Below, one piece after another: positions 1,011 through 29,922 of a DNA stretch of 32,000 nt. The DNA comes from an uncultured Bacilli bacterium (GTDB lineage: Bacteria > Bacillota_I > Bacilli_A > RF39 > UBA660): the NCBI GenBank assembly GCA_934086185.1, contig CAKOHW010000001.1:75966-107965 (forward strand), written 5' to 3'. The first letter of the stretch is position 1. Each line of letters begins with the position of its first letter. A model generated the notes under the pieces. The model did not search any database and was not told the DNA's origin. It saw nothing but the letters and a program-made list of their open reading frames with translations. A program made the position numbers and the translations under genes.

Positions 1011-2507
1011 CTATATAGATTTCTTTAATCTAATTATAAATTCTTTACATAGTTTCATATTATCATTACCAAAGTTAACGTTCAAATAATTTATAAATTC
1101 ATCTAATTCATTTTTTATAAATGCTAAATTTAATTGTTCGAACTTTCTTAATATTTTACTTGATATTAAGTAATCAATGGCATCTACTTCAGTACCACCA
1201 CAAGCGATAAATGATGGAACAAACTCTTCTATTTGTCTCATGATACGGTTACCAAAAGATATTCTAAAATGTTCTATTATATATTGATCCAATTCTTCAA
1301 GTTTATTTCTCATTTCACTAGTTAATGGATACTTTTCTTTTGCTTCATCAAATAATTTTTCGAAATGTTCATCTCTAATATTTATTGGATCTGTTTTTTC
1401 AATATCGAATTTTGCACATTTTTCATTAATATCTATTGGCATAGCACGGTCATAAACCTTATCAGTTACCATAAATGTTGAATCATCGTTATTTATTGTT
1501 CCTATATACCACATGTTACCAGGTAATGTAAAATTACCTCCTACAATCTTCTTAGGATCACTTTCCCAAGGAGTTGCAACTAAGTTTACTTTCCATTCGC
1601 TCTTACTTGGCATTTCCATAATAGATAACATTTCAGCAAAGTAATATTCTACACGTGCTATATTCATTTCATCTAGTATTGTTATATATATTTTTTCATT
1701 ATATGTTGCTTCATACATCTTACTTAATAATTCTGTTTCATTAAATCTTTTTGTAAATTCGTTGAAATATCCAAATAACTCTGTTCTATCTCTCCATGAT
1801 GGTTGTACAGATGCTATTATTGAATCATTATTTAAGAATTTACCAAAAGCATATGCAAGTGATGTTTTACCTGTACCAGAAATACCTTGTAAGATTAATA
1901 TTCTTGATGCTCCAAATGCTGAGATAAATAATCTTATTAATTCTGGTGTATAGTAAAGTCCTAATTGACTAGCTGAATATGCTCTAAATTTTTCACATAT
2001 ATCTTTTAGAGTTAATGAATCATCATATTTTGTAGTATCTTTAAATCCTTCATATTTTTGATCAATTTTAGTAAGTTTAAAGAATCTACTTTCACCTTCA
2101 CCAATTTTATTTACTGGATTTCCATCTTCATCTAGTTCTACTTCTTCTTCAGCCATTGCAATTAATTTATCATTTTCTTGTTTTAATTTTATCATGTCAT
2201 AATTTAATTTTTCTACTTCTTCAAGTAAGGCATCTTGCTCATGACCTTTTTTTATTATTCTAATTATTCTTTTAATTACATAGTATATTACAAATGCAAA
2301 TAAACATATTAATAATAACAAGCATATTATTGCAATTATAATAAATACAATATTAACACTACTTTTATATTTATTAACAGTATCTATATAATCTAAAACA
2401 TTAAACATTTTAAATAAACCTTTAAAGAATTCTTTAAATATTGATAATAACCCCTCAAAGAATGGTGTTAAAAAATCCATAAAAAACTTTCCATAATTAT
2501 TACTCAT
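1011..2507 (-). CDS. McrB-family AAA+ NTPase with N-terminal transmembrane anchor and coiled coil
   Basis: Walker A ILILQGISGTGKTSLAYAFG. Walker B/McrB-type block YITILDEMNIARVEYYFAEMLSIME. NMWYIGTINNDDSTFMVTDKVYDRAM resembles the GTMN..D.S...D.AL.RR motif. The N-terminus has the hydrophobic helix VNIVFIIIAIICLLLLICLFAFVIYYVI followed by a basic stretch and a coiled coil (LEEVEKLNYDMIKLKQENDKLIAMAEEE). A strong SD (aggaggt) precedes the ATG. Confidence 0.65.
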   Translation of the reverse strand: MSNNYGKFFMDFLTPFFEGLLSIFKEFFKGLFKMFNVLDYIDTVNKYKSSVNIVFIIIAIICLLLLICLFAFVIYYVIKRIIRIIKKGHEQDALLEEVEKLNYDMIKLKQENDKLIAMAEEEVELDEDGNPVNKIGEGESRFFKLTKIDQKYEGFKDTTKYDDSLTLKDICEKFRAYSASQLGLYYTPELIRLFISAFGASRILILQGISGTGKTSLAYAFGKFLNNDSIIASVQPSWRDRTELFGYFNEFTKRFNETELLSKMYEATYNEKIYITILDEMNIARVEYYFAEMLSIMEMPSKSEWKVNLVATPWESDPKKIVGGNFTLPGNMWYIGTINNDDSTFMVTDKVYDRAMPIDINEKCAKFDIEKTDPINIRDEHFEKLFDEAKEKYPLTSEMRNKLEELDQYIIEHFRISFGNRIMRQIEEFVPSFIACGGTEVDAIDYLISSKILRKFEQLNLAFIKNELDEFINYLNVNFGNDNMKLCKEFIIRLKKSI

Positions 2508-2517
2508 ATTATACCTC

Positions 2518-3699
2518 CTATTTTATCCCCAATAATTTTTTTTCTGATATTTTACTACTCATATCTTTTATAATAAAATTCATAGACATATCTTTCCAAA
2601 CTTCCATATATTTTTCATTAACACTTAAGAAATCTTCTGGAACTACTACATTTTTCATATCCATAAACATATTATAGTTATTTGATTCAAATGTATTTTT
2701 TATATCAATATATAAATCTATATTATTAGATTTATTAAAGTTAACAAAATCATAATCTCCTCTAATTTCTTCAAAATCTACTATAAATTTTATTTTCGAT
2801 AATACTTTTTCATTTTTATTATTAAGTAATTCTAATATTTGTTCATTTGTAAAATTATCTCTTCTTATTGGAAATAATATATTATAATCTATTCCCTTTT
2901 CTAATAATTTAAATGCTGTATAGTAACAATAATCAAATGATATACTAGAGAATCTTCTATACATATCTAGTTTATTAATAACTATTTTAATATCTTTGCC
3001 ATCATAATTATCTAATTCATCTATATCGTATTCATATAATACTTTTAAATATTTATCATTTTTATTTATCTTTATATAAGAATTATGAGATTCAGTAGTC
3101 ATCATATTATTTATGATATCATTAAATTCATTATTTTTTAAAATTATATCTTTTAATTTATTTATTAAAGTTACTAGGTCTTTTTCTTTTTTAAATCTTA
3201 TTTTTTGAAAATTATCTATAACATTATTAATAACTTTTTCTATTTTCTTTGGAGTATCTATATTAGTATACTTATTATTATAAAGTATAATTGATAAATA
3301 TATTAATATTGTTAAATATAGTATTGAACTTTCTTTTTCTTTTATAATACTCTCGTTATTCTTTGAAATATAATAATCTATAATAGACATTAATATACAC
3401 GAAAGTTTTCTATTTATTTTATTATTAAATGTTATATATTCTTTTATTTTATTAAAATCACCAGTATATAAATAATATTTATCATAATATATGTTTATAA
3501 TATTTTTTACTAAATCTGTTAATTCTTCATTTGAGGCCCACAAATTTTGGTCTTGAAATTCTATATTTTTTTCTAATATACTAGAAATATTACATATACT
3601 TTTTTTAGAATATTCAATATATTCACTAATATTATCTTTCATTTTAAGCCTCTTTTCTATTCTACTTAAGATTATATCAAATAATATTTTAGATATCAA
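2518..3699 (-). CDS. hypothetical protein, first gene of the McrB-like operon
   Basis: Long minus-strand ORF with no motif I recognise. The track start at 3699 is a TTG. The in-frame ATG at 3642 (MKDNISEY) has an agagg SD 6 nt upstream and is the more likely start. The stop lies inside the SD region of the downstream McrB-like gene, suggesting an operon. Confidence 0.5.
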   Translation of the reverse strand: MISKILFDIILSRIEKRLKMKDNISEYIEYSKKSICNISSILEKNIEFQDQNLWASNEELTDLVKNIINIYYDKYYLYTGDFNKIKEYITFNNKINRKLSCILMSIIDYYISKNNESIIKEKESSILYLTILIYLSIILYNNKYTNIDTPKKIEKVINNVIDNFQKIRFKKEKDLVTLINKLKDIILKNNEFNDIINNMMTTESHNSYIKINKNDKYLKVLYEYDIDELDNYDGKDIKIVINKLDMYRRFSSISFDYCYYTAFKLLEKGIDYNILFPIRRDNFTNEQILELLNNKNEKVLSKIKFIVDFEEIRGDYDFVNFNKSNNIDLYIDIKNTFESNNYNMFMDMKNVVVPEDFLSVNEKYMEVWKDMSMNFIIKDMSSKISEKKLLGIK

Positions 3700-3766: not shown

Positions 3767-4504
3767 TTAACATATTTCTTTAATGCTATTTAAGAATTTT
3801 TTACTGTTTAAATATAATCCTGTATATCTATCATAATATATGTTTATAAATAAATTTATATTATTTATTACTTTTTCACTTATTTTTAATTCACTTATAC
3901 TACTTATATCTATTAAATAGTATAACCTTAACATTTTTAATGTCTTTTCATCATATATGTATTCGTTAGTGTAACAATTTTTACAAATATAACCACCTAT
4001 ATCTCCATCTATTGTTACTATATCTTTTTTGTTACCACATTTAGAACAACTTTCAAAATTAACTCCTACTCCTAAATAGTCTAATACTTTTAATTCATAT
4101 ATATTTGTTAATACTAGTGGATTTAAGTTATCATTAAGTTTAAGTATAGTATTAATAAATAATTCATATAATTTTTCATAATCATTTGTTTGTTTTGCTA
4201 CTTGGTTAGTTAGTTCTACTATGTAACTTAAATAACTTATTGCTTCTAAACTTGTTTTAATATTATTTAAATCATTTATAACACTAGCTTCTTTAATATA
4301 ATGAAGATTGTTATTATTTTTTTTATTTATTATAAATTTACCATATGTAAATTTTGTAGTATTAACTCTTAGATTACTTTTTAAAGATTTAGCACCTTTA
4401 GCGATACATCCTATAATACCATCTTTTGTAAATATATTAATTATTTTAGATGTATCTCCGTAATCTACTACATTAAATATAAATCCTTCTATACTGTCTA
4501 ACAT
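3767..4504 (-). CDS. recO: DNA repair protein RecO
   Basis: N-terminal OB-fold pattern (EGFIFNVVDYGDTSKIINIFTKDGIIGCIAKGAKS). C-terminal zinc motif CSKCGN...YICKNCY. Conserved position after era-yqzL. Confidence 0.85.
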   Translation of the reverse strand: MLDSIEGFIFNVVDYGDTSKIINIFTKDGIIGCIAKGAKSLKSNLRVNTTKFTYGKFIINKKNNNNLHYIKEASVINDLNNIKTSLEAISYLSYIVELTNQVAKQTNDYEKLYELFINTILKLNDNLNPLVLTNIYELKVLDYLGVGVNFESCSKCGNKKDIVTIDGDIGGYICKNCYTNEYIYDEKTLKMLRLYYLIDISSISELKISEKVINNINLFINIYYDRYTGLYLNSKKFLNSIKEIC

Positions 4505-4508
4505 TTTA

Positions 4509-4586
4509 TCACTTCTTTTTATATTCTAAATAATATTCTATTTTTCCAGTTTTTTTAAATAATTCCCATAATTCACGTTTTTCCAT
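4509..4586 (-). CDS. yqzL: YqzL-like small protein (25 aa)
   Basis: Below the ORF-track size cutoff. My translation is MEKRELWELFKKTGKIEYYLEYKKK*. The W.LF..TG.I..YL.YK pattern and the position between era and recO match the Bacillus yqzL arrangement as I recall it. An aaggg SD lies ~9 nt upstream. The stop is 5 nt before the recO ATG. Confidence 0.55.
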   Translation of the reverse strand: MEKRELWELFKKTGKIEYYLEYKKK

Positions 4587-4632
4587 AATAATTAACCCTT
4601 TCTAATTAAGTATTGGTTAATATATGAAAAAA

Positions 4633-5430
4633 TTATTCACTATTTTTTAAATTTTGTTTTACTATTTCAAATAGATAGTATATATATGGCATTTTATATT
4701 TGTTCATGTAATTGATAATACTTTCTATTTCATTTTTTTTCATTTCTTTATTATTCTTTTTAATTACATTAATAAATTCATTTAATTTTAATTTATTATC
4801 ATACATATGATATTTTTCTAAATAAATGTTTACATTGTCTATTATAAAGTTAGAAAATATTTCATTATTATTTTTTAAATAATATATTAGTAAATTACTA
4901 TCCCATCCTAATACTTGGTAGTATTCATATATATCAAATGGTTTATCATTTACTAAGTCATCACTTATTTTATCTACTACTTCTTTTACCTTATCTAAAT
5001 TTTCTTTATTAAATGTATTTTCTCTTTTTAAGAATTTTCTAAGAGTTGTTTTTTCTTCTTTTGATAAATAATAATGTTCAGTATTGTTTATAAATTTTAT
5101 AAAATTATTATAGTCAATATTATTTGTTTCTATATATTCTTTTATATTATGTTTATCTTCTTTTATGTAATTATTTATTATATTTAGTAGAATTTCTGCT
5201 TCTTTTCTTTTATTAATTTTTTTGTTTTCAGTTTTATTTTTGAATTTTAAGTTATATTCTAAATATAATTTATTAATTTTTTTACTATCTTTTAATTCAT
5301 TTAAATAATCATTAACTATTTCTTTATATTCATTTAAAGTAATATTTTCTTTTTTTATAAATTCTTCTAATTTTTTTAATTCTCCGTTAGATTCGATATA
5401 AAATTTTAAATACTCTTCTTTTTTACTCAT
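4633..5430 (-). CDS. hypothetical Lys/Asn/Glu-rich protein
   Basis: 265-aa ORF. Its ATG overlaps the era stop by 8 nt (gATGAGTAAaa), which suggests translational coupling. No recognisable motif and low-complexity composition. Confidence 0.45.
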   Translation of the reverse strand: MSKKEEYLKFYIESNGELKKLEEFIKKENITLNEYKEIVNDYLNELKDSKKINKLYLEYNLKFKNKTENKKINKRKEAEILLNIINNYIKEDKHNIKEYIETNNIDYNNFIKFINNTEHYYLSKEEKTTLRKFLKRENTFNKENLDKVKEVVDKISDDLVNDKPFDIYEYYQVLGWDSNLLIYYLKNNNEIFSNFIIDNVNIYLEKYHMYDNKLKLNEFINVIKKNNKEMKKNEIESIINYMNKYKMPYIYYLFEIVKQNLKNSE

Positions 5431-6457: not shown

Positions 6458-6826
6458 TTAATATATATTATTATATAAATTTCCTACTTTTAATACTCTA
6501 TTTTCTTCATTAAGAGTATATAGTATTACACTTTTTTCTGGTTCAAAAAATTCTGTTATTACTCTTTCATTTAAATATTTTAAGTCACTTATGTTATTTG
6601 TTCCAACCATTATATATATTTTTTCAAAGTCACCTTTTTTATAACCTTCAGTTATAGCACTTGCTATTGCGATTTGTTCTGCATAAATTCCATCTCTATA
6701 AGTTGCGTTTTTTACAGTAACACCTTTAAAGTATGTTCCATCTTTCATTAAAACAATAGATGCAAAGCATGTTTTTTCATATGGTGAATAAGAATTACTT
6801 AATAAATTTTTTAATTCACTAATCAT
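6458..6826 (-). CDS. cytidine deaminase-fold paralog lacking zinc ligands (probably non-catalytic)
   Basis: Collinear with the adjacent cdd (YSPYEKTCFASIVLMKDGTYFKGVTVKNATYRDGIYAEQIAIASAITEGY). It has YAE in place of CAE and no PC..C motif. The likely start is ATG 6826 (MISELK) with a GGAGGAGGA SD inside the last codons of cdd. The 5' extension in the ORF track is an artefact. Confidence 0.6.
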   Translation of the reverse strand: MISELKNLLSNSYSPYEKTCFASIVLMKDGTYFKGVTVKNATYRDGIYAEQIAIASAITEGYKKGDFEKIYIMVGTNNISDLKYLNERVITEFFEPEKSVILYTLNEENRVLKVGNLYNNIY

Positions 6827-7208
6827 GTAAATCCTCCTCCCCAAATACATGTGGACAAAGTTCACTTAAAATAAATTCTTTTTTATTTCCAGATACATCA
6901 TATGAAATTAATTTTTTATCTAATTCAAAAAATTCTACTATTTGTTGTCTACATAAAAAGCATGGTGTAATTATATGATTAGCTTTACTCATTATATAAA
7001 TACTATCAAAGTCATATTTTGTATACCCGTTTGATATAGCTCTTCCTATCGCTACTTCTTCCGCACACATACCATCTTTAAATGATGGATTTTCTACATT
7101 AACTCCTTTAAAATATGTTCCGTCTTTCATTTTTACTATGCATGCTACTTTGAAATTACTGTAAGGTGTATATGCATTATCAATTATTTTTTTTAATTCT
7201 TCAAACAT
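6819..7208 (-). CDS. cdd: cytidine deaminase
   Basis: CAEEVAIGRAI (C/H-A-E zinc/catalytic motif) and PCFLCRQQIVEF (PC..C). The small homotetramer-type size fits. The ATG at 7208 (MFEELKK) has a gggg SD 7 nt upstream, whereas the track start at 7226 is a TTG. Confidence 0.85.
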   Translation of the reverse strand: MFEELKKIIDNAYTPYSNFKVACIVKMKDGTYFKGVNVENPSFKDGMCAEEVAIGRAISNGYTKYDFDSIYIMSKANHIITPCFLCRQQIVEFFELDKKLISYDVSGNKKEFILSELCPHVFGEEDLHD

Positions 7209-7222
7209 TATTTTTCCCCTTT

Positions 7223-7699
7223 TCAATTATTTAAATCTCTTTTTAATTTTTTACAGGTAATACTTATATCTCTTAAATTATCTTCGGTCTTTAAATTGGC
7301 CTTTGAATATTCTTGAATAGATTTTATATTTTTTAAAGTATTACCAAATTTATCTTTCATCCATTTTTGCGATGGCATTAGCCATACATGAAAGTGATAA
7401 TCACTTTTTTCTTCTTGTACTATATTGTAATTTTCACATATTCCATAACTTTTTAATAGTTTTAAAACTTTTGAAATTAATTTTATTAGTTTTAGTTGTT
7501 CTATTTCAGTTAAATCATTTATAGAAGAAATGTGCTTATTTGCTGAAATTATAATAAAGCCATTTATTGGTAATTCGAAATCTTGTGCTACATTAAATGT
7601 TTCATCTTTATATAAAATATTTATATTATTTTTTTCTAAGAAACAACCTAAACATCCATTTATTTCATAGTCTTTCCCATCATAACTAGTTATATTCAT
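7223..7699 (-). CDS. HIT-family (histidine triad-like) protein
   Basis: N-terminal C..C (GCLGCF) and a C-terminal triad-like YHFHVWLMP. The third His of the H.H.H motif is replaced by Trp. The start overlaps the ybeY stop by 4 nt (7696-7699). Confidence 0.65.
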   Translation of the reverse strand: MNITSYDGKDYEINGCLGCFLEKNNINILYKDETFNVAQDFELPINGFIIISANKHISSINDLTEIEQLKLIKLISKVLKLLKSYGICENYNIVQEEKSDYHFHVWLMPSQKWMKDKFGNTLKNIKSIQEYSKANLKTEDNLRDISITCKKLKRDLNN

Positions 7700-8878: not shown

Positions 8879-10312
8879 TTACTCTTTAGTTTTCTTTAAG
8901 ACTACTACTCCTCTTTTTTTACAACTGTCTTTTCCTTCTGGGCACGTTTTTAATACTTCACATGATGGCCCAAAAGATTTAGATACTAGAGGGGTTACAT
9001 TTGAAGCTAATCTTACCATTTCTTTAACAATATTTCTTATTTCCCATTGTGCTTTATTGCATGTACGCATTCTGCTAATCCATTCTAATGCTCTAGCGTT
9101 TAATGTTGTTGATACATTTAAACAATTCCCAGATAAATAAAAATATACTAAGTCTTCATCTCGAACACCTTGTTCCTTAAAATAATCTACTAATATTTTG
9201 TTATTTTCAAATATTTCTTTGTATTTTAATTCATGGGTTTTCTTTATACTTTCTGGCATTACATAATTATTTAAATTATTTAAAGGACAAAAATCAGGTA
9301 TCATAAGTGATTGCATTCTATGTCTAGTTAAATGTGTTAATACTGCAAGTGATATAGGAAATTCAAACTTATACATTACACATTCTAATTCTCTTTGATC
9401 TTTTTTATTTATTATTGCATCCATAAGTTTATCTTTTATATCTTTATCTACTCTTATCAATTCATATAAAAGAATACTTGCTTCTTCATATGATATGTCA
9501 TATCTATTTTGTAAAGTGCTGACTAATACTTTAAAATCTCCATTTTCTGTATAGTCTAATAAAGTTACTTTATCTATACTTTCTTCGTTACCTTTTAATT
9601 CATTATTATTAACATATTTATCTACAAAAGATAAATTATCTTTATAATAATCTTTGTTTTCTTCTTTTTTAAATTCTTCACTTAAGTATGGAGCATATTC
9701 TAATATTTTATTTTTTAATTTTGTAGCAAATTCTTTAACTTCAGTTATATTACTGTTTTTTCCATATAATAAATCACAAGTCATACGAATTAGTTCGTGA
9801 GCATCACATCCCATAATAATATTGGAATGGTATGAATATGGCAAAATAAATCTAGCATCTTCTATTGGGATTCCTTCATCATTTAATTCTCCATATTTAT
9901 TAAATAAACTTTGCATGTAATTATTATAGATGTTTTTTAATTTTTCATTATTATGTAAAACATTACCATTTTTATCTTTAAAATCTGGTGTATAAAAACC
10001 TGCATTTCTAAAATCTACATTACGTCTTGATTTTATTGTAAATGATGTTAATCTATAACTAATTATAATTTGTTCTATTATAGGTGTAACATCTTCTATT
10101 GCAAAAACTAAATAATCATGTTCTAATATAGATTTATGACCAGAATTTAAAATAAGTTTTATTAACTTTAAATTTTTTTCATAATCATTTCTACTATTAT
10201 AAACCTCTGTTACTGTTCCGTTTGCTCTTGATAAATTACCTGCTGATGCAACTATTTTTACTCTATTTTCTACTTCATCTTTAGTAGAATTACCTAGCAT
10301 TAATACTTTCAT
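8879..10312 (-). CDS. thyX: tandem (fused double) ThyX-like FAD-dependent thymidylate synthase
   Basis: Two ThyX-like halves. The N-half has SILEHDYLVFAIEDVTPIIEQIIISYRLTSFTIKSRR (RHR degenerated to SYR, S....S.R retained) and EDARFILPY. The C-half has HLTRHRMQSL (RHR..S) and ARALEWISRMRTCNKAQWEIRN. It is about twice the normal ThyX length. Confidence 0.65.
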   Translation of the reverse strand: MKVLMLGNSTKDEVENRVKIVASAGNLSRANGTVTEVYNSRNDYEKNLKLIKLILNSGHKSILEHDYLVFAIEDVTPIIEQIIISYRLTSFTIKSRRNVDFRNAGFYTPDFKDKNGNVLHNNEKLKNIYNNYMQSLFNKYGELNDEGIPIEDARFILPYSYHSNIIMGCDAHELIRMTCDLLYGKNSNITEVKEFATKLKNKILEYAPYLSEEFKKEENKDYYKDNLSFVDKYVNNNELKGNEESIDKVTLLDYTENGDFKVLVSTLQNRYDISYEEASILLYELIRVDKDIKDKLMDAIINKKDQRELECVMYKFEFPISLAVLTHLTRHRMQSLMIPDFCPLNNLNNYVMPESIKKTHELKYKEIFENNKILVDYFKEQGVRDEDLVYFYLSGNCLNVSTTLNARALEWISRMRTCNKAQWEIRNIVKEMVRLASNVTPLVSKSFGPSCEVLKTCPEGKDSCKKRGVVVLKKTKE

Positions 10313-10398
10313 AATAAATTCTCCTTCATTTTTTTCTAGAATTTATTATAACAAATATATTAATTATTTAAGTTATTTTTTACATTTTTTTACACTTT

Positions 10399-11502
10399 TT
10401 ATTCTATTTTTTCAGTATCACTAATTATTTCATTAGTTACTACAAAAACTTCTAATGTTATTTTGTTATTATTTATATTTTTATTTAATATTTTAGTATT
10501 TATAATTTTACCTTTTTTAGATAATTTAGTATTAAATTTATTAGTTAATTCATCTATTCCTTTTTTGATACTATCAGTTTCATTATATTTTTGAGGTATA
10601 AGTTTATATTCTTTTTCCTTATATAATTTAAATATTTTATTTTTAAATATATATTTTTTATCATAGTTAGTATATTTAGTTTTTCTTAATATTTTATTTT
10701 TAATACATATATTAAGTCTATTTTTTTTAGTATATACTTTTTTATAGTATGTTCTTTTTATTTCAATATTCGTTTTATACCAAACATTTCCATATACTAT
10801 TCCAGATGCACATGTAGTACCTGCTACTTCTTCATTTAAATAAATATTTCCATTTATTAATATATCTCCTTTTTTTACAAAGTCATTGTTTTTTACTAAT
10901 ATTTCTCCAGAAGTTGCATATATGTTTGTTATTAATGCGTCTTTTTTAGATATTATGTTACAATTTTTATTTTCTTTTTTTATTTCAGTTAATATTCTTT
11001 CCTCTACTCTTACTATATAAGTCATTCCAACATTAGTAATACTAATCCATTCTAAATCTTCTTTGTTATTTTCTAATATTTTATTTTTAATATTATCTAA
11101 TTCATTAAAATTTTTTTTAATACTATATTTTTTTATTCCATTATTTATTAATTCTTCATATACTAAATCCCTTACATTTTTATTACTGTGTATTACATTA
11201 ACTTTTAAAATAATATTAGAAATAAAATATAAACCTAGTAAACATAATATAAAAGTTAATATTAAATATTTTAAAGTATACAGTTTCTTAATAAAATTGT
11301 CTTTACCTAATAATTTATATATTTCTATTTTAGAAAAATAATTGTATATTTTAATATTCTCATAATCATTTTTATCTATTTTTACTATAATAGAATTAGT
11401 ATTAATATATCTTATACTATATAAATTTATATTATATTTTTTACATTTATCTATAAACCTTTTTATGTTATCTTCTACTTTGATTAATATATATTTATTC
11501 AT
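10399..11502 (-). CDS. yqfD: sporulation protein YqfD
   Basis: ~370 aa with one TM helix after a ~90-aa N-domain (LILTFILCLLGLYFISNIIL). It immediately follows and overlaps a YqfC-like ORF by 8 nt (11495-11502), which is the canonical yqfC-yqfD pair. Confidence 0.7.
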   Translation of the reverse strand: MNKYILIKVEDNIKRFIDKCKKYNINLYSIRYINTNSIIVKIDKNDYENIKIYNYFSKIEIYKLLGKDNFIKKLYTLKYLILTFILCLLGLYFISNIILKVNVIHSNKNVRDLVYEELINNGIKKYSIKKNFNELDNIKNKILENNKEDLEWISITNVGMTYIVRVEERILTEIKKENKNCNIISKKDALITNIYATSGEILVKNNDFVKKGDILINGNIYLNEEVAGTTCASGIVYGNVWYKTNIEIKRTYYKKVYTKKNRLNICIKNKILRKTKYTNYDKKYIFKNKIFKLYKEKEYKLIPQKYNETDSIKKGIDELTNKFNTKLSKKGKIINTKILNKNINNNKITLEVFVVTNEIISDTEKIE

Positions 11503-11734
11503 ATACTTTCTCCAAATTAATTATGTTACCTTTTATTAATAACTCATCTTTTTCCATTTTTGTAATTAATAAATCATTGCCTTTTATATTTAATTTTAAA
11601 TTATTAAATTTTAAACTTATATATGTATCTGTAAATTTTATAATATCTTTATAATTATAAATATATATATAATTAGAATATAAAATAATGTAATATTCTT
11701 CTTTTTTTAAGTAATTTCTAAATATTTCTAACAT
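11495..11734 (-). CDS. yqfC: sporulation protein YqfC (YabP/YqfC family)
   Basis: 79 aa with a beta-rich repeat pattern (ISLKFNNLKLNIKGNDLLITKMEKDELLIKGNIINLE). Position is upstream of yqfD. Confidence 0.65.
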   Translation of the reverse strand: MLEIFRNYLKKEEYYIILYSNYIYIYNYKDIIKFTDTYISLKFNNLKLNIKGNDLLITKMEKDELLIKGNIINLEKVYE

Positions 11735-11859
11735 TATTATTCACCATTAAATTATATGAAATAAGTTATTATTTAACTATTAAATTTTAATATATTAATT
11801 GTTTTTCTAGTTTAATCATGTTAATATATAATATATAAGAATAGAAAGTAAGTGATATA

Positions 11860-13491
11860 GTGAATAATATTTTAATTAAAATTAGTTCTAATTTACTTAC
11901 TTTTTCATTAACTAAAAAAAATAATGAAGACTTGAATAATACTAATATTATTAGTACTAAAGAATTATATTTTGATTTAGATTATATAAAAGATAATATA
12001 GAATTAGTAAGTAGTTTTTTAAATACTATAATAATTAAAAATAATATTGATAAAGTTAGAATAGATAATATAATTATTGTGTGTTTAGTATTAGATTTAG
12101 TTAATAATAGTAATATTAAAAAAATACTTATTAGCGAAAATAAATCTATAAATTATGATATATTTTTAAAATTACTTAATAATCAAAATTTAGAATATTT
12201 AAATTGTTATGATATACCTCCTTTCTTATTTGAAAGATTAAATGTAAATAATACTAATTTAAAAATTGATGTTAGAAGTGAAATATTTTTCTTAAGTAAA
12301 TTTATGGAAGATAATAAATTATATAAATATTCTGATATATATTATAAAAAGAATATAGTTATTAATAGTAATTTTAATCCTCAAGAGTTAGAAGACTTTA
12401 AAACATTTATGAGAATAAATAATTGTTTAAAAGAAATACATATTAAAAATTATACTAATGATTTAATTTATTCTATTATAGATATATTTAAAGAGAATAA
12501 TATTAAAGATAAAATTATAGTATTTTATGAAAATAAAAATATAAATATTATAGTTAATTCTATAAATTATTTAAAAAATATTTATAAAGATTATTTAGAG
12601 AGTAATAATATAGATTTTAAAATTGTTTATTCTAAAGAATATAAAAGAAAAAATATGTTTAAACAAATAAATTTTGTTACTTTAAAATATATATGTTTTG
12701 TACTTATTAGTGGTGCTTTAGTATTTTCTGGATTTGATTTTTATAAAAATTATTCTGCTAAGAAGAAAGTTGATGATATAAATAATTCATTAACAGATAT
12801 TTTAGATGATTTTGAATATACTGATGATACTGAAACTAGTGATGTTGAATATATAGATACAGTAGAAAATGAACAAGCAAATAATATTAATTATAATAGT
12901 AATTATTTAGATTCTTATTATGCTACTTATTCTAAAATGTTTGAAGAATTATCAAATATTAATGATGAAACTGTTGGTTGGATAACTGTTAATAAAACTA
13001 AAGTTAATTATCCTGTTGTACAACATACTGATAATAATTACTATTTGAAACATGATTTTAAAAAGAATAATAATGCTTATGGTTGGATTTTTATGGATTA
13101 TAGAAATAATATATATAATATGAGTGATAATACTATACTTTATGGACATAATTCTGTTAAAGATGCAATGATGTTTGGTTCTTTAAGATATACAACTAAT
13201 GAATCTTGGTATAAAAATTCTGAAAATCAAATTATTACGTTTAATACTAAAGTTAAAAATATGAAATGGAGAATATTTTCTATTTATAGAATACCTGTTA
13301 CAAATGATTATTTATATGCTAACTTTGCTGATAGAAATGAATATCAAACTTTCTTAAATACTTTAAAAGGAAGAAGTATATATGATTTTGGAGTTGAAGT
13401 TAATAGTGATGATCATATATTAACTCTTTCTACTTGTGGAACAAGTGTTGCACAAAGAATGGTTATTCATGCAGTATTGATAAAAGAATAA
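11860..13491 (+). CDS. srtB: class B sortase with ~260-aa N-terminal extension and TM anchor
   Basis: The C-terminal ~200 aa read VGWITVNKTKVNYPVVQHTDNNYYLKHDF...ILYGHN...LTLSTC, with catalytic His and TLSTC Cys. TM helix is YICFVLISGALVFSGFDFY. The start codon is GTG. Confidence 0.72.
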   Translation: MNNILIKISSNLLTFSLTKKNNEDLNNTNIISTKELYFDLDYIKDNIELVSSFLNTIIIKNNIDKVRIDNIIIVCLVLDLVNNSNIKKILISENKSINYDIFLKLLNNQNLEYLNCYDIPPFLFERLNVNNTNLKIDVRSEIFFLSKFMEDNKLYKYSDIYYKKNIVINSNFNPQELEDFKTFMRINNCLKEIHIKNYTNDLIYSIIDIFKENNIKDKIIVFYENKNINIIVNSINYLKNIYKDYLESNNIDFKIVYSKEYKRKNMFKQINFVTLKYICFVLISGALVFSGFDFYKNYSAKKKVDDINNSLTDILDDFEYTDDTETSDVEYIDTVENEQANNINYNSNYLDSYYATYSKMFEELSNINDETVGWITVNKTKVNYPVVQHTDNNYYLKHDFKKNNNAYGWIFMDYRNNIYNMSDNTILYGHNSVKDAMMFGSLRYTTNESWYKNSENQIITFNTKVKNMKWRIFSIYRIPVTNDYLYANFADRNEYQTFLNTLKGRSIYDFGVEVNSDDHILTLSTCGTSVAQRMVIHAVLIKE

Positions 13492-19754: not shown

Positions 19755-20888
19755 TTAGTAATTATACTTTCTCTCTAAATCTGTTTTTAAATTTGTATTA
19801 CTCATTTTTAAGTAACCTTTATAACTACCAGAACTTCTTAAATATTTTTCATAGTCATATAAATAAAGATTATCTAATTTTTTATTAATTCTTCTAATAG
19901 TTTTATTATTATACCTTATAAGCAATTTATTATTTTTATCAATTTTAAATACATAGCCTAAAAAACTAATGCCATTATTTAATTTATATATATTAGATTT
20001 AGCATTTGTAGATAGTTTTAATTCATTTATCTTTTTTTCTATTAATTTAAAATTTTCTTTTAATTTTTCTTTATCTGTATCTATAATTAATAAATCATCC
20101 ATATACCTAATATAATATTTATATTTTAATTCATCTTTAATAAAGTGATCTACATCATTTAAATAAAATATTGCTAGTATTTGACTTGTCATATTTCCTA
20201 TTGGTAAGCCTTTATTATATTCATATAATGGAATTTCATTAATTGTTTTTATTTTTTTAGTTTTTTCATTATCACTTATGTTTAGACTTTTTATATAATT
20301 TATTTTTTCTTTTTTTAGAAATTCTATTCTTTCATTAACATATTTTTCATTAGTAGAATTAATAATTATTTTTAATAGACTTAATGCTTTTTTATCTTTT
20401 ATATATTTTTTTATTTTTTTGAATATGATTTCGTGATCAATATTATAAAAGTATTTTTTTATATCAATTTTTAATATATATATATCTTTATTTAAATATT
20501 TTAATTTATTTATATATTCTATAAATTTTTTAAAAGCGTAACTACTTCCTTTATTAATTCTGGTTGCAACATTAGTATCAATTAATTTACTTTCAAGGCA
20601 TGGTAAAAGTATATATTTACTTACTAAGTGATTTACCAATTTATCAGGAATATTTTCACTCATTATTATTCTATATTTTGGATCTCTTATCATAAATATT
20701 CTATAATAACTAAATTTATACTCGCCTTTATAAAGTTTTGTTAAAATATTAAAAATGTTAGTGTTTAAATTCAATCTAAAATTATAAACTGCCTCTTTAT
20801 TTTTACAATTTCTTTTTATTTTATGAAACATATTTAAAGCATGTTCATAAACTAATATTTCATTATATATATTATCAATTCTTTTCAT
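19755..20888 (-). CDS. DGR-type reverse transcriptase
   Basis: RT motifs are RIIMSENIPDKLVNHLV, ILKIDIKKYFYNIDH, LPIGNMTSQILAIFYLN (the DGR-diagnostic IGxxxSQ in place of the group II intron motif) and YIRYMDDLLII (YMDD). There is no maturase or endonuclease domain. It lies next to the TR/VR pair. Confidence 0.9.
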   Translation of the reverse strand: MKRIDNIYNEILVYEHALNMFHKIKRNCKNKEAVYNFRLNLNTNIFNILTKLYKGEYKFSYYRIFMIRDPKYRIIMSENIPDKLVNHLVSKYILLPCLESKLIDTNVATRINKGSSYAFKKFIEYINKLKYLNKDIYILKIDIKKYFYNIDHEIIFKKIKKYIKDKKALSLLKIIINSTNEKYVNERIEFLKKEKINYIKSLNISDNEKTKKIKTINEIPLYEYNKGLPIGNMTSQILAIFYLNDVDHFIKDELKYKYYIRYMDDLLIIDTDKEKLKENFKLIEKKINELKLSTNAKSNIYKLNNGISFLGYVFKIDKNNKLLIRYNNKTIRRINKKLDNLYLYDYEKYLRSSGSYKGYLKMSNTNLKTDLERKYNY

Positions 20889-21222
20889 CTTTATAATCTA
20901 AACTATATATAATATTTCTAATTTCACCTAACATTTTTACGCATGATAAAAATCTTTTCTTTATTATTAATTTTTTTGTAAAAATCACTTCTAAATAAAA
21001 GTCTATCATCATAATATTTGATTTTATATCATTAATATATTTTTGTCTAATGTTTCCTTTATTAATACTAACTTTTGTAGTATTTTTTATCATTTCATAA
21101 TATTCGTCTATTATTTTTGTTCTTAATTGTTTTTCATTTTTAGGAAAAGATGGCACTATATATTGTTCAAAATATACTAGGAATGCTTTTTCTTTGCCTA
21201 ATACTATAAATTTATCATTCAT
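20875..21222 (-). CDS. avd: Avd-like accessory variability determinant (small helical bundle protein)
   Basis: 115 aa, basic, with a helical heptad-like pattern. It overlaps the RT start by 14 nt, the typical Avd position immediately 5' of the RT. The assignment rests on size, position and composition, not on a strong motif. Confidence 0.6.
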   Translation of the reverse strand: MNDKFIVLGKEKAFLVYFEQYIVPSFPKNEKQLRTKIIDEYYEMIKNTTKVSINKGNIRQKYINDIKSNIMMIDFYLEVIFTKKLIIKKRFLSCVKMLGEIRNIIYSLDYKDEKN

Positions 21223-21610: not shown

Positions 21611-21735
21611 AATTGCGGGACGGGCACCAATGTTGTTGTCATTGTTGACGTTGTTGTTGTTCAAGTTGCCATCATTGTTCACGTTGAACGCGTTGTCGTT
21701 GTTGTTGTTGAAGTTGGAGCGAGACAAAGACCAAT
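21611..21735 (-). repeat. DGR template repeat (TR), non-coding
   Basis: 125 nt, collinear with 22461-22585 (offset 850). 106 positions are identical. All 19 mismatches are T on the plus strand here, meaning A on the minus (sense) strand. In the VR frame it reads WSLSRSNFNNNNDNAFNVNNDGNLNNNNVNNDNNIGARPAI, with 18 AAY codons. The 76-aa plus-strand ORF 21528-21758 over it is spurious. Confidence 0.92.
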
Positions 21736-21835: not shown

Positions 21836-22210
21836 TTATTCCATTATTATTTGTTGAATTGATTTTATCAAATTCAACATTTCGTCACTTTTCATAATAT
21901 CCAAATCTTTTGACAAGATTAATTCATTTATTTTTTTTAATTTTGTTTTTTCATCAATATTATCTGGGATGATAATTTTATAATCGATGCTTTTTTGTTT
22001 TAATAATTCTTCATATTTTGCTATTGAATTTTTTGGAAAACCACATTTATCACAAAAATTTGAAAATTTGGTTAATCTAAAATCAAACATTTCATTCAGT
22101 AATATTGCATCACTATCTAATGCAATATAAAAGTTTCCACATTCAAATAGATATATCGTTGTTTCATTTTTTTCTTTTAAACTTAAATACTTATCATATA
22201 TTTTACTCAT
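21836..22210 (-). CDS. stand-alone MutS domain I (mismatch-binding domain)-like protein, DGR accessory candidate
   Basis: IYDKYLSLKEKNETTIYLFECGNFYIALDSDAILLNEMFDFRLTKF...CGFPKNSIAKYEELLKQKSIDYKII is collinear with the MutS N-terminus as I recall it (M..QYL.lK......lLfFR.GDFYE.F..DA......L.I.LT.R....PM.G.P......Y...L...G..V.I). The Phe of the F-x-E mismatch wedge is kept (NFY) and the Glu is replaced by Ile. It is only 124 aa, with no connector, clamp or ATPase domains. Confidence 0.7.
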   Translation of the reverse strand: MSKIYDKYLSLKEKNETTIYLFECGNFYIALDSDAILLNEMFDFRLTKFSNFCDKCGFPKNSIAKYEELLKQKSIDYKIIIPDNIDEKTKLKKINELILSKDLDIMKSDEMLNLIKSIQQIIME

Positions 22211-22267: not shown

Positions 22268-22297
22268 ATTATATCACACTATCGTGCAATTTGTTAA
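22268..22297 (-). promoter_or_regulatory. candidate internal promoter for the MutS-like ORF/TR/avd/RT transcript
   Basis: Minus strand TTAACA-18 nt-TATAAT with a perfect extended -10 (TGaTATAAT, 22276-22268). It is embedded in a 10-bp AT inverted repeat (22261-22270 / 22288-22297). Confidence 0.4.
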
Positions 22298-22313: not shown

Positions 22314-22339
22314 GTCCTGTGGAAGGGTTTCCACAGGAC
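22314..22339. other. GC-containing 10-bp hairpin downstream of the DGR target gene
   Basis: gtcctgtgga-agggtt-tccacaggac. It is unusually GC-rich for this genome. The minus-strand side has no T-run, while the plus-strand side has tttt. Confidence 0.55.
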
Positions 22340-22365: not shown

Positions 22366-22383
22366 GTAGGACTAAAGTCCTAC
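22366..22383. other. 7-bp stem / 4-nt loop hairpin 2 nt after the target-gene stop
   Basis: gtaggac-taaa-gtcctac. It shares the gtcct/aggac core with the 22314-22339 hairpin. No T-run follows on the minus strand. Confidence 0.5.
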
Positions 22384-22385
22384 TA

Positions 22386-24260
22386 TTAACTCTCCGTTAC
22401 TTTATATGGATTTCCTATTGTTCCATCTCCACTTGCTATTTGTGCACCAGTGGCTAAAGTAACTGCGGGACGGGCACCAAAGTTGCTGTCATCGTAGACG
22501 CCGTCGTTGTTCAAGCTGCCATCATCGTTCACGCTGAACGCGAGGTCGTCGTAGTCGTCGAAGCGGGAGCGAGACAAAGACCAATAATATGATTGTGCAT
22601 TGTCATATAAATAATAGAATTTATTAGAATAACCAGCCTGTCCTCCTGCGTATGCTATTTCATCTGCTGTTAATGTTCCTATATAATCACTTATGCTGTC
22701 TTCTTCACTTGAACATTTTAATGTTGCGTTTCTTTCTACACCTTTTCCCCATAATCTTTTTCCTGCTGTGTAATAATAAGTTCCATAATCATTTTCTATC
22801 TGTGTTACTTCTGCGTCTGTTAATAACACTCCAGTTGATGAATTATATCTATAATTATCACTTCCACCTAAGCACCATTTTTCATTTTTTAATAATGATT
22901 TCTTATTTTCTAATCCACTTGATGTATACCATGCTTTTAATGTTGTATATAATCCTCCACTATAATTTTTATAATCTGCGTAATATTTGCTATTAATTGT
23001 TTTATAACCATATGCTATTGTTGCTCCATTATTTATTAAAGCTGATTTGGTATCTGATGATGTTATTGTACTACATAATCCTTCTTTGGCTAAGATTATT
23101 TTTATAGATCCATCGCCTTCAACACGTACTATTCTCCAACACATATTATTAAATTCTATGTAATTGTCTTTGACTCCACCTCTATAATAATAAGAGTCGC
23201 CATAATCATCAGTTGTTGCCGATAATGTTGCTTCTGTCGAATATGATACTGCTGACACTCTTTTTGCTTTCATTGTTATTGAACTTGTACTGCTTGCTGG
23301 TGCTGTTGTTACTTTATATATACTTGATAAATTTGTTGTTGTTTTTTGAGTATTTGTACTTGCTGAATTACTACTTGCACTTGTTGATACTATATATTTT
23401 CCTACCAATGTTGTATTACATGTTCCATCATTGTATTTACATGTTGTAACTCCTGTTAATGTGAATTTACCAGTACTTTCATCTATTGTATACCCTGTTC
23501 CATATGTCCAGTAATATCCTTGATATGTTGTTGTTATGCTTACTGAACTTTCGCTTGTTGCTTCATCTACTTGATCAGTATAATATTTATAACTTACTGC
23601 TTGTGCAGGTGTTGTTAATGGAGTTGCACTAAATGTTGTTCCATTTTTTGCTAATTTTGCATTGTTTATTATTGCATATGATAATGATGTTTGTTCATAT
23701 GGCATGAATTCTCCATTACTGTTTTTACCAAATATTTGTAATTTTGCTTGTAATACTTTTCCCATATCTACACTTTGATCTGTATTTGTATCTTTATATG
23801 TAAATTTAAATGTGTATGTATGAGTTTTTTTAGGTTCTATTTCATTTGTTATTAATTGTTTTATTCCATTTGGAAATGTTGTTTCTGTTGTTACTTCATT
23901 ACATGCTATTGTTCCATCTGTTGTGCAATTTAATGTATATTTAACATCATCTACTCTTTCAAATGTATTTATTACATCTATTAAATATACTCCATATTCT
24001 ACATTTGCATTTCCTTCGTTTTTTACTGTGAATGTTTTAGTATATACTGTATCACTTGGTAATAAGTTTTCTCCTCCAATTACTCCATCACTTCCATCGC
24101 CATATACTAATTTTAAATCTGCTGTTGTTACACTGATGCTCTTATCGTTAGTGTTTCCTTGTATTCTTGTTAAAAAGTATGCATATGTTAATCCTAACAA
24201 TGCTAATAATACTATTGTTATTCCTACTACACTAACTATGATTTTTTGTTTTCTATTCAT
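22386..24260 (-). CDS. secreted DGR target protein: SipW/TasA-type signal and N-domain, Thr/Ser-rich linker, C-terminal lectin-like VR domain
   Basis: The likely start is ATG 24260 (MNRKQK) with an aggagg SD; the track extends it to 24293. The signal region IVLLALLGLTYAYFLT resembles the SipW-dependent (TasA/camelysin-type) signal motif ..GTYAYF.. as I recall it. The middle holds S/T-rich tracts (STSASSNSASTNTQKTTTN, APASSTSS). At the C-terminus, ..LTADEIAYAGG...YYWSLS...GARPAV resembles the DUF1566/C-type-lectin-fold ends used by DGR targets. The VR is followed by a 24-aa tail (TLATGAQIASGDGTIGNPYKVTES). Confidence 0.85.
   Translation of the reverse strand: MNRKQKIIVSVVGITIVLLALLGLTYAYFLTRIQGNTNDKSISVTTADLKLVYGDGSDGVIGGENLLPSDTVYTKTFTVKNEGNANVEYGVYLIDVINTFERVDDVKYTLNCTTDGTIACNEVTTETTFPNGIKQLITNEIEPKKTHTYTFKFTYKDTNTDQSVDMGKVLQAKLQIFGKNSNGEFMPYEQTSLSYAIINNAKLAKNGTTFSATPLTTPAQAVSYKYYTDQVDEATSESSVSITTTYQGYYWTYGTGYTIDESTGKFTLTGVTTCKYNDGTCNTTLVGKYIVSTSASSNSASTNTQKTTTNLSSIYKVTTAPASSTSSITMKAKRVSAVSYSTEATLSATTDDYGDSYYYRGGVKDNYIEFNNMCWRIVRVEGDGSIKIILAKEGLCSTITSSDTKSALINNGATIAYGYKTINSKYYADYKNYSGGLYTTLKAWYTSSGLENKKSLLKNEKWCLGGSDNYRYNSSTGVLLTDAEVTQIENDYGTYYYTAGKRLWGKGVERNATLKCSSEEDSISDYIGTLTADEIAYAGGQAGYSNKFYYLYDNAQSYYWSLSRSRFDDYDDLAFSVNDDGSLNNDGVYDDSNFGARPAVTLATGAQIASGDGTIGNPYKVTES
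22461..22585 (-). repeat. DGR variable repeat (VR) inside the 3' end of the target gene
   Basis: Encodes WSLSRSRFDDYDDLAFSVNDDGSLNNDGVYDDSNFGARPAV. It differs from the TR only at TR-adenine positions: 13 A>G, 4 A>T and 2 A>C on the sense strand. The 3' end carries a GC-rich IMH-like tract, GGTGCCCGTCCCGC, identical in TR and VR. Homology stops abruptly at both ends. Confidence 0.92.
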
Positions 24261-24319
24261 ATTAACTCCTCCTAAAAAATAAAATACCAACAACTTCGTG
24301 TATTGTATTTTCTAAAATA

Positions 24320-28519: not shown

Positions 28520-28547
28520 CCACATAAATTATTATGTGGCTTTTTTT
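28520..28547. terminator. intrinsic terminator after rnhC (shared with convergent gene)
   Basis: ccacataa-atta-ttatgtgg forms an 8-bp stem, followed by c and ttttttt. Confidence 0.7.
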
Positions 28548-29922
28548 AAAATTTTAAAACTTCTATATTAGAATTATTATCTTTTAATACTTCTGGTTTA
28601 TTTTTGCTTTTTGTCTTTTTTTGTTTTTTTGGCTTTTCTTTTTTTAAAGTTGTCTTAGGATTATTTTTATTATTTGATTTTATAAATATCATAATTACTA
28701 AAATTACAATTATAAAACTTATTATACTTACTGTTATTAATAATGTTAAACTTATTTTATTCTTTTTTATTATAGTTATAAAATATGTTGTACTTGAACC
28801 ATCTTTTCCAGTAACAATTATTTTTATAACACTACCATTTTTTAAATCTTGGTTTCCTTCTACAGTTACTGTATCTTTATCAGGATTTAATGGTACTTTT
28901 GTTATTTGAAGCTCATTAATATTACTATCAATGGTTATCGTATAATTAAAAATATCTTGTTTAAAATCTATTTCATACCCACCTATTATTAAAGTTTTTA
29001 GATAATGAGTTTCTTCTAATGTTTCTCCTTTTTTTAATCTTGTTACTTTTAATGTATATGTTACTTCATTATTATTTTTATCTGTTAATTTTATTTTTAT
29101 AGTGTTTTCTCCGACAATTAATTTTTCATTATTTTCTAATGTAACTGTAGTACCTTCTATAGATTTAGTATCTATTAATAATGATTCTACTTCGTTTAAT
29201 ACTTTAAATTCATATTCAAATACTTTAGCATCAAAGTCTCCAAAATCTATTTCCTTGTTTGTTTTTTTGTCAGTTATTTTTAAATCAGTTAATGAAAGTG
29301 TATTATTATTGTTATTTGATACATTATTGTAGCATGCATAATATGTTGTATTTTTTTCTACTTTAATTGTTCCACGTGATCCTTCTTTACATGTAGCCTG
29401 TGTACCCCATCCATTAAAACCATCTTTATCTAATGTTGGTAATGTTATTGAACATGTCGAGCCACTTGAAACTTCACATTTTTTTTCTGTTTTTTCTTCC
29501 TTATCTTGTAATATAACAGTATATGTTGTTTTATTTGCATTTGTGGTAGTTGTAGTAGTTTCTTGTTCTTTAACAGTAGTAGATACATAGTTAGGATTTT
29601 TCATTTTAATTGCAGTTTTATTATTAGAATCACTTATCTCTATTATTGCTACTTCTATATTTGAGAATTTTTTTATGTAATCTTTATTCTTTACCTTAAC
29701 TTTTATTTCAGAATTTTCATTTTTTGATCCAATTTCAAAAAATGATGTTATATCTTCTCCGTTATGATTGAACGTTAAAGTATCTCCAACTACTCCAGTA
29801 CATGTAAAATTTTTTATTGTATTTGGATCCATTACATTTTCTGAGCCACATTTAAGTGCTTTAGCATTTACAAATGGTATAAACGTAAACATTAAAAATA
29901 TAACTAGTTTAAGTTTTTTCAT
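28546..29922 (-). CDS. surface protein with two cadherin-like beta-sandwich domains and a C-terminal TM anchor
   Basis: Signal peptide MKKLKLVIFLMFTFIPFVNA. Two modules have the pattern L..L.I......F....F.Y...V.....L.I......G..V.....L..GEN.I.I.....N....Y.L.V.R. C-terminal TM helix ISLTLLITVSIISFIIVILVIMIFI, then a Lys-rich tail. No LPxTG motif. Confidence 0.6.
   Translation of the reverse strand: MKKLKLVIFLMFTFIPFVNAKALKCGSENVMDPNTIKNFTCTGVVGDTLTFNHNGEDITSFFEIGSKNENSEIKVKVKNKDYIKKFSNIEVAIIEISDSNNKTAIKMKNPNYVSTTVKEQETTTTTTNANKTTYTVILQDKEEKTEKKCEVSSGSTCSITLPTLDKDGFNGWGTQATCKEGSRGTIKVEKNTTYYACYNNVSNNNNNTLSLTDLKITDKKTNKEIDFGDFDAKVFEYEFKVLNEVESLLIDTKSIEGTTVTLENNEKLIVGENTIKIKLTDKNNNEVTYTLKVTRLKKGETLEETHYLKTLIIGGYEIDFKQDIFNYTITIDSNINELQITKVPLNPDKDTVTVEGNQDLKNGSVIKIIVTGKDGSSTTYFITIIKKNKISLTLLITVSIISFIIVILVIMIFIKSNNKNNPKTTLKKEKPKKQKKTKSKNKPEVLKDNNSNIEVLKF

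Follow-up and report, generated by a model that had tools for sequence, protein, structure and literature searches.

Which part of which protein is rewritten by a diversity-generating retroelement (DGR) in the chromosome of an uncultured gut bacterium, and how is that protein displayed? The question is raised by a stretch of 32,000 nucleotides from contig CAKOHW010000001.1 of an uncultured Bacilli bacterium, here called the window, in which all positions are counted. The open reading frame (ORF) at 22386-24260 had been read as a DGR target that combines a SipW/TasA-type secretion signal with a C-terminal lectin-like variable repeat (VR), which would place the diversified tip on a fibre or matrix protein. 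From the computational analysis described here we consider it highly probable that a DGR of the MSL (MutS-like)/Avd type diversifies the DUF6273-type head of a predicted exported ligand-binding protein that is probably cell-associated. In its mechanism the element is a standard DGR on a C-type-lectin (CLec) type head of a predicted exported protein. The specific domain combination appears to be undescribed, while SipW dependence of the export and fibre formation by the protein are unsupported. The cassette lies on the minus strand in the order target with VR, MutS-like ORF, template repeat (TR), avd and reverse transcriptase (RT).

22386-24260, minus strand: DGR target gene, 624 aa plus stop codon (ORF list, ribosome-binding site; public data contain an identical protein, P0001).
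22461-22585, minus strand: VR, 125 nt, encoding aa 559-600, 85% identical to the TR.
21836-22210, minus strand: MSL accessory gene, 124 aa, MutS-domain-I-like (Pfam MutS_I, E 2.4e-11).
21611-21735, minus strand: TR, 125 nt.
20875-21222, minus strand: avd accessory gene, 115 aa (NCBIfam NF033474 DivGenRetAVD, E 2.6e-6, below the cutoff).
19755-20888, minus strand: DGR reverse transcriptase, 377 aa (Pfam RVT_1, E 3.9e-17; IGNMTSQ and YMDD motifs).

TR and VR differed at 19 positions, and all 19 of them were adenines in the TR. Nearly all TR adenines (42 of 43) fall at codon positions 1 or 2; read in the VR frame, the TR holds 18 AAY, 3 GAY and 2 ATT codons, a content that allows about 10^24 protein variants and in which no stop codon is possible. 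The A-only mismatches, together with the RT, Avd and MSL genes, confirmed the ORF as a DGR target. As had been noted before, the VR stops short of the extreme C-terminus; it is followed by exactly 24 aa, which include GDGTIGNPY. The MSL ORF between target and TR was conserved in related DGR loci and the cassette in orthologous loci, where the avd orthologue is annotated, weakly, as PF22296 (bAvd). MSL proteins are a known accessory class, and a cassette with both MSL and Avd is what Wu et al. 2018 call 'architecture D' (PMC5758913). The class is rarely discussed; the ORF found here comprises MutS domain I only.

The 90%-identity cluster of the target contained 16 sequences from different assemblies, 15 of which were aligned. 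Among these 15 proteins (at least 90% identical) about 22 VR positions were multi-allelic, with up to about 8 residues each, and the variable sites outside the VR were biallelic, as strain differences are. Because the variation between samples was almost confined to the VR, the alignment provides evidence at the population level that the DGR is active or was so recently. The outcome of mutagenesis was seen in the A-only differences between TR and VR and in the VR-restricted variation between samples. The steps leading to it we infer from the general DGR model: RT, Avd and the small MutS-domain-I protein would copy the TR RNA with adenine-specific errors, and the cDNA would then replace the VR, rewriting up to 23 codons (the roughly 10^24 variants) in surface beta-hairpins of the head.

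The target protein was divided as follows.

24268-24273, minus strand: Shine-Dalgarno sequence AGGAGG, visible in the sequence itself 7 nt 5' of the start ATG (24260).
24180-24260, minus strand: predicted signal peptide or signal-anchor, aa 1-27, with n-region MNRKQK, h-region aa 7-24 and c-region T25-Y26-A27.
23646-24179, minus strand: D1, aa 28-205, a conserved N-terminal segment unstructured in the model, then a nine-strand beta-sandwich; TasA/camelysin-like at its start.
23256-23645, minus strand: helix and D2 (aa 206-335), a compact beta domain rich in S/T that varies among paralogues or is missing from them.
22389-23255, minus strand: D3, aa 336-624, a DUF6273-like C-type-lectin-like head that carries the VR.

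Since AGGAGG stands 7 nt upstream, the start codon is likely the ATG at 24260 and not the upstream TTG at 24293. The N-terminus quoted in the original prediction, KIIVSVVGITIVLLALLGLTYAYFLT, and the motif L.PSD....TFTVKNEG were both found in the 624-aa protein, and the C-terminal motifs LTADEI (aa 530-535), YYWS (aa 557-560) and GARPAV (aa 595-600) are all conserved in the family. An AlphaFold2 model of residues 1-335 reached an overall predicted local distance difference test score (pLDDT) of 83 and consisted of a helix (3-33), a sandwich of nine strands (51-179), a second helix (193-203) and a beta domain (230-335), with low confidence for the segment 30-46 (pLDDT below 50). The stretch after the first domain had been taken for S/T-rich linkers. 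This did not hold for most of it: residues 230-335 were modelled as a compact beta domain with a pLDDT of 93-97, and the S/T-rich stretch is therefore mostly part of a folded domain. Paralogues of about 518 aa lack the D2 region, judged by their BLAST ranges. We propose that the protein would begin with a Sec-type signal or anchor, whose c-region T-Y-A/Y-F (the slash marks the cleavage site) mimics the TasA/CalY family, and would continue with D1 as a small beta-sandwich, D2 as a spacer beta domain and D3 as a distal lectin-like head. Its paralogues form a very large family in which the N-terminal module is shared, and the target is the one linked to the DGR.

The AlphaFold2 model of D3 (aa 336-624), built with an alignment of 104 sequences, had a pLDDT of 92.3 and a predicted TM-score (pTM) of 0.89, and in it the VR forms surface beta-hairpins at model residues 235-278. 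A Foldseek search of the PDB gave a single significant match, 9qa6, the immunoglobulin A (IgA) peptidase of Thomasclavelia ramosa (E 2.9e-4, prob 1.0, 314 columns); all other matches had E values above 1, several of them being classical C-type lectin domains. The region matched in 9qa6 is presumably the N-terminal domain (NTD) of the protease, because of its size and domain type, Foldseek giving no target ranges. This NTD was described by the depositors as a C-type-lectin-like core related to the C-terminal domain of Legionella Lcl (PMC12237041), and a second group called it DUF6273 (PMC12402451). In BFVD, five of the seven matches of D3 with E below 1e-3 were DUF6273 phage proteins (best E 2.6e-5), and one DUF1566 phage protein appeared at E 0.11 only. 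The conserved cysteines C374, C396, C463 and C516 would, as pairs, fit an extracytoplasmic domain of the C-type-lectin-like kind (CTLD).

At the level of sequence families, Pfam DUF1566 (PF07603) matched neither the query (E<=1) nor any of 148 relatives (E<=0.01), and a DUF1566 identity was rejected. Pfam DUF6273 (PF19789) did not match the query either; in relatives it was found weakly, in 5 of 70 and 2 of 78, with a best score of 21.5 bits against a gathering threshold (GA) of 23.5 and over the C-terminal third of the model only. The structural matches in Foldseek and BFVD, with neither family matched by the query sequence, support a modelled fold for D3 that is lectin-like and closest to DUF6273 rather than to DUF1566. 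The lectin-like part of the predicted DUF1566/C-type-lectin fold thus stood, and its family name did not.

Among the DGR targets of gut phages, DUF6273 heads are frequent, and the domain has already been described there as a target domain (PMC10743442); the top BFVD matches of D3 were phage proteins. The element might on these grounds be taken for a phage or prophage DGR and its target for a phage receptor-binding protein. We regard this as exceedingly improbable, and gene context effectively refuted it. The cassette is flanked by polC and spoIIP on one side and by genes for an XRE regulator, thioredoxin and RNase HIII on the other, with no phage structural, terminase or integrase genes in the flanks. 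An 88%-identical orthologue (P0004), on a 527-kb gut-metagenome contig of ERZ4567635, has syntenic surroundings. The target itself starts with a signal or transmembrane (TM) segment, and its family is chromosomal, each genome holding over a dozen paralogues. The element is chromosomal, a cellular DGR with the MSL/Avd architecture.

The gut-phage systems are nevertheless the nearest to it in several respects. Tentaclins and the Mtd-like proteins of Faecalibacterium phages (PMC10743442, PMC11792537) share with the target a DUF6273-like CLec fold with the VR in surface beta-hairpins, adenine-specific TR/VR mutagenesis and the setting in human-gut Firmicutes. Tentaclins are phage proteins with an N-terminal head followed by immunoglobulin (Ig) domains, whereas here a cellular chromosomal element acts on a C-terminal head, preceded in the protein by a signal/TM N-terminus, by a beta-sandwich that is TasA-like and by a spacer domain. 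The cellular targets LdtA of Legionella and category 'd' (DUF1566/CLec2) have, as here, avd and MSL, an exported surface protein and a C-terminal CLec-type VR, and some members of category 'd' carry adhesion or fimbrial N-terminal domains (PMC5758913). From these the target differs in that no DUF1566 was detected and no lipobox is present, a TasA-like module taking the place of a lipoprotein signal or P_gingi_FimA. The T. ramosa NTD (9qa6) resembles D3 as a domain of about 290 aa with a DUF6273/CTLD core on a surface protein of gut Bacillota, at 12% identity and a TM-score of about 0.4; unlike the target, it is subject to no DGR diversification, and it is joined to an M64 peptidase that has an anchor of the LPXTG type.

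How the head would be held at the cell depends on the other end of the protein. The target lacks a lipobox, an LPXTG motif and a TM segment at its C-terminus, so retention would have to come from the N-terminus, through either an uncleaved anchor or an assembly mediated by D1. The N-terminus had been assigned to the TasA/camelysin type. Pfam Peptidase_M73 (PF12389), the TasA/CalY/camelysin family, matched query residues 4-88 with E 1.2e-3 and 19.1 bits, below the GA of 22.5, and the match covered profile positions 3-79 of 196 only. It was the only recurrent Pfam family in relatives, found at E<=0.01 in 28 of 70 and 17 of 78, and one paralogue (P0077) scored 25 bits, above GA. With hhalign, an 11-sequence D1 alignment was compared with 40 collected TasA/CalY proteins. 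When the signal peptides were included, the probability was 87% (P 3.8e-6), with D1 columns 1-84 on TasA-family columns 1-81 and T25-Y26-A27/Y28-F29 exactly on T25-W26-A27/A28-F29 of TasA. Residues 28-261 of the TasA sequence used were confirmed against PDB 8aur; mature TasA in that entry begins at A28. By this register, cleavage of the target would fall between A27 and Y28. The motif T-[WY]-A/x-F at residues 25-29, the next strand and the motif L.PGD...F.v.N.G are common to the target and TasA/CalY, whereas the match covers only about the first 40% of the Pfam model, with no detectable homology in the remainder of the sandwich.

Several results weigh against our explanation, or against its N-terminal part. 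None of the target domains of the query was found at Pfam or NCBIfam threshold. The Foldseek TM-scores of D3 are modest, 0.35-0.42 when normalised to the query, and the canonical CLec structures of DGR targets, Mtd and TvpA, were not among the Foldseek matches listed for D3. A family-profile sequence search of the PDB returned only an insignificant phage tail match (E 0.21) and no TasA, Mtd or TvpA. When the signal peptides were removed, the hhalign probability dropped to 26% over 23 columns, and the resemblance to TasA is largely limited to the signal peptide and one short motif. We concluded that the alignments make it plausible for the signal and the first strands to be TasA-like, while a TasA fold extending over all of D1 is unproven; part of the assignment stood in this way, with aligned residues and coinciding cleavage sites but a score below the Pfam threshold.

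The comparison of folds gave a similarly divided answer. D1 and D2 were given to Foldseek as one model, so that the top generic sandwich matches may belong to either domain. The TasA fibre 8aur_A was listed with prob 1.0 and the longest alignment (216 columns), but at E 5e-3, with TM-scores of 0.27/0.37 and at rank 11; the archaeal TasA-like pilin AbpA (7ueg_A) followed with E 1e-2 and prob 0.97. Both ranked below generic carbohydrate-binding module (CBM) and tail-fibre sandwiches. D1 also showed weak Ig-like matches to N_BRCA1_IG, and the best NCBIfam match of the N-terminus was the membrane-anchor N-terminus of KdpC. These matches, the single continuous helix at residues 3-33 of the AlphaFold2 model and the lack of a nearby sipW all fit a resemblance to TasA that is convergent or compositional, in which residues 1-33 are a Sec signal or an uncleaved type II anchor and D1 a stalk of a generic, Ig/CARDB-like kind. 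On this account the target would be a membrane-tethered DGR adhesin of the standard type, as Roux et al. 2021 describe for most cellular targets, which carry an N-terminal TM segment or signal peptide and adhesion domains (PMC8144416). We incline somewhat towards this account of the N-terminus. It has to contend with the recurrence of Peptidase_M73 as the sole such family across two independent samples of relatives, with a profile-profile P of 3.8e-6 and the T-x-A/x-F positions in exact register, and with a conservation of residues 1-50 so strong that it suggests a specific interaction and not a generic signal.

The rival account makes D1 a true TasA-type subunit. In that case a SipW-type peptidase would cleave between A27 and Y28, the freed, highly conserved N-terminal strand would insert into the next subunit by donor-strand exchange, and the resulting fibres or matrix would show on each subunit a lectin-like (or leucine-rich-repeat, LRR) head from one of over a dozen paralogues, a single one of them DGR-diversified. 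The coinciding cleavage sites, the 87% alignment over residues 1-84, the Peptidase_M73 matches in relatives with one paralogue above GA, and the listing of 8aur and 7ueg agree with this, and residues 28-50 are near-invariant yet unstructured in the monomer model, as a donor strand would be; no other anchoring signal is present in the protein. We nevertheless hold such fibres to be unlikely, and an anchor or generic stalk to be more likely. The hhalign probability fell to 26% without the signal peptides, and the fold matches stayed at E 5e-3 to 1e-2 with TM-scores below 0.4, under the generic CBM and tail-fibre sandwiches. About 420 residues follow D1 in each subunit, unlike in known TasA-type fibres, and no 'major subunit' consisting of D1 only was found; the candidates, short family members, end mid-domain, look truncated and were rejected.

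The proposed SipW dependence found no support. TIGR04088 gave no match at E<=10, whether to the N-terminal 60 aa, to D1 (205 aa) or to any of three paralogues, a result to be read with the proviso that HMMER filters may drop very short models. A motif scan that covered the window and 1.27 Mb of sequence surrounding 80 related loci found no ER/archaeal-type signal peptidase (SipW, TIGR02228). It picked up only two peptidases; both are P-type signal peptidase I (TIGR02227, E 6.3e-48) and neither is adjacent.

The N-terminal module is shared by a very large family. The full-length protein had more than 1,100 relatives, and a D1 profile found 3,488 cluster representatives at 50% identity (E<=1e-3); in every one of the best 150 of these D1 starts at the N-terminus or within about 20 residues of it. 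Species-representative genomes held 208 copies in about eleven metagenome-assembled genomes of uncultured gut 'Bacilli/Tenericutes', the richest with a dozen or more. The family occurs in uncultured low-GC human-gut Bacilli, including Hadza and Nepali samples, and its layout is D1, a variable or absent D2, and D3, one member carrying BspA-type LRRs. Conservation is highest over the first 50 residues, with a column identity of 0.81-0.84 against 0.42-0.66 elsewhere, and for this reason the alignment argues for a specific N-terminal function. An adjacent RT was present in only 5 of 77 family loci, which indicates that the DGR diversifies roughly one member per genome, and no trans-targets of the TR were found among paralogues on the 527-kb contig.

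Some of the related loci carry further repeats. In one related DGR locus (L012, JAZLAK010000132) three TR-like copies, mutually 88-90% identical, lie between MSL and avd, at 2629-2925, 3066-3360 and 4445-4745. In another (L044:11691-14259) an insertion of about 2.6 kb separates the TR region from avd, compared with an otherwise 97-99% identical cassette (L018). VR- or TR-like sequences 81-94% identical to the L018 TR were found at L008:11763-11851, L046:11685-11805 and L045:12140-12314, in loci without an RT by tblastn. These may represent targets that are orphaned or served from a distance, or else cassettes that have decayed. Locus L030 holds an RT fragment only.

Among the papers in the library searched, none linked DGRs with TasA, and on this basis the combination appears undescribed. 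The novelty is weakened because Wu et al. 2018 reported DUF1566-class targets fused to a fimbrial-subunit domain (PMC5758913) and because of the signal-bearing adhesion targets of Roux et al. 2021, and the TasA component itself is weakly established. What the locus adds is a cellular chromosomal example of a DGR-diversified DUF6273-type lectin head, described previously mainly for gut phages, and it exposes a very large, unannotated family of predicted exported adhesin-like proteins with an unusually conserved TasA-like N-terminus. If that N-terminus is a real TasA/SipW-type assembly signal, DGR hypervariation would be linked to fibre or matrix biology, in a hypervariable adhesive fibre that joins two systems not previously linked and has one head continuously rewritten by the DGR; if it is not, the protein would be an ordinary membrane-tethered DGR adhesin.

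Putative signals were located around the target stop codon and upstream of the remaining genes.

22464-22480, minus strand: candidate initiation of mutagenic homing (IMH) site, the GC-rich 3' end of the VR, identical to the TR (TTGGTGCCCGTCCCGCA; TR/VR alignment).
22366-22383, minus strand: inverted repeat with an 8-bp stem, directly after the target stop codon (repeat search).
22314-22339, minus strand: GC-rich hairpin with an 11-bp stem and a 4-nt loop (repeat search and terminator scan).
22268-22297, minus strand: promoter-like site TTAACA-18-TGnTATAAT, 11/12, located 5' of the MSL-TR-avd-RT unit (consensus scan only).

By the general DGR model the GC-rich VR 3' end would act as the IMH, and the hairpin at 22314-22339 is a candidate for either the target-recognition hairpin of the DGR or a terminator.

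Elsewhere in the window, the plus-strand gene at 11860-13491 encodes a 543-aa protein with a C-terminal sortase domain (Pfam E 3.6e-13) and an unannotated N-terminal extension of 370 aa; the gene is syntenic in the orthologous contig, and the DGR target is without a sorting motif. The G+C content falls to 14-19% at 10001-13000, and the GC skew, about -0.2 to -0.3 elsewhere, changes sign to +0.40 at 12001-13000, coinciding with this plus-strand gene. Another surface protein is encoded nearby on the minus strand at 28546-29922, with a signal at its N-terminus, beta-sandwich domains that are cadherin-like (Pfam E 2.8e-10) and, near its C-terminus, a hydrophobic stretch followed by a lysine-rich tail that resembles a membrane anchor. 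Two overlapping tandem ORFs of 135 aa each at 6458-7226 (minus strand) look cytidine deaminase-like by eye and may be a tandem duplication. At 1011-3699 (minus strand) a 498-aa ORF with a weak match to AAA_5 (dynein-related AAA), below threshold, lies beside an unannotated ORF of 393 aa, and the two may form a McrBC-like restriction pair.

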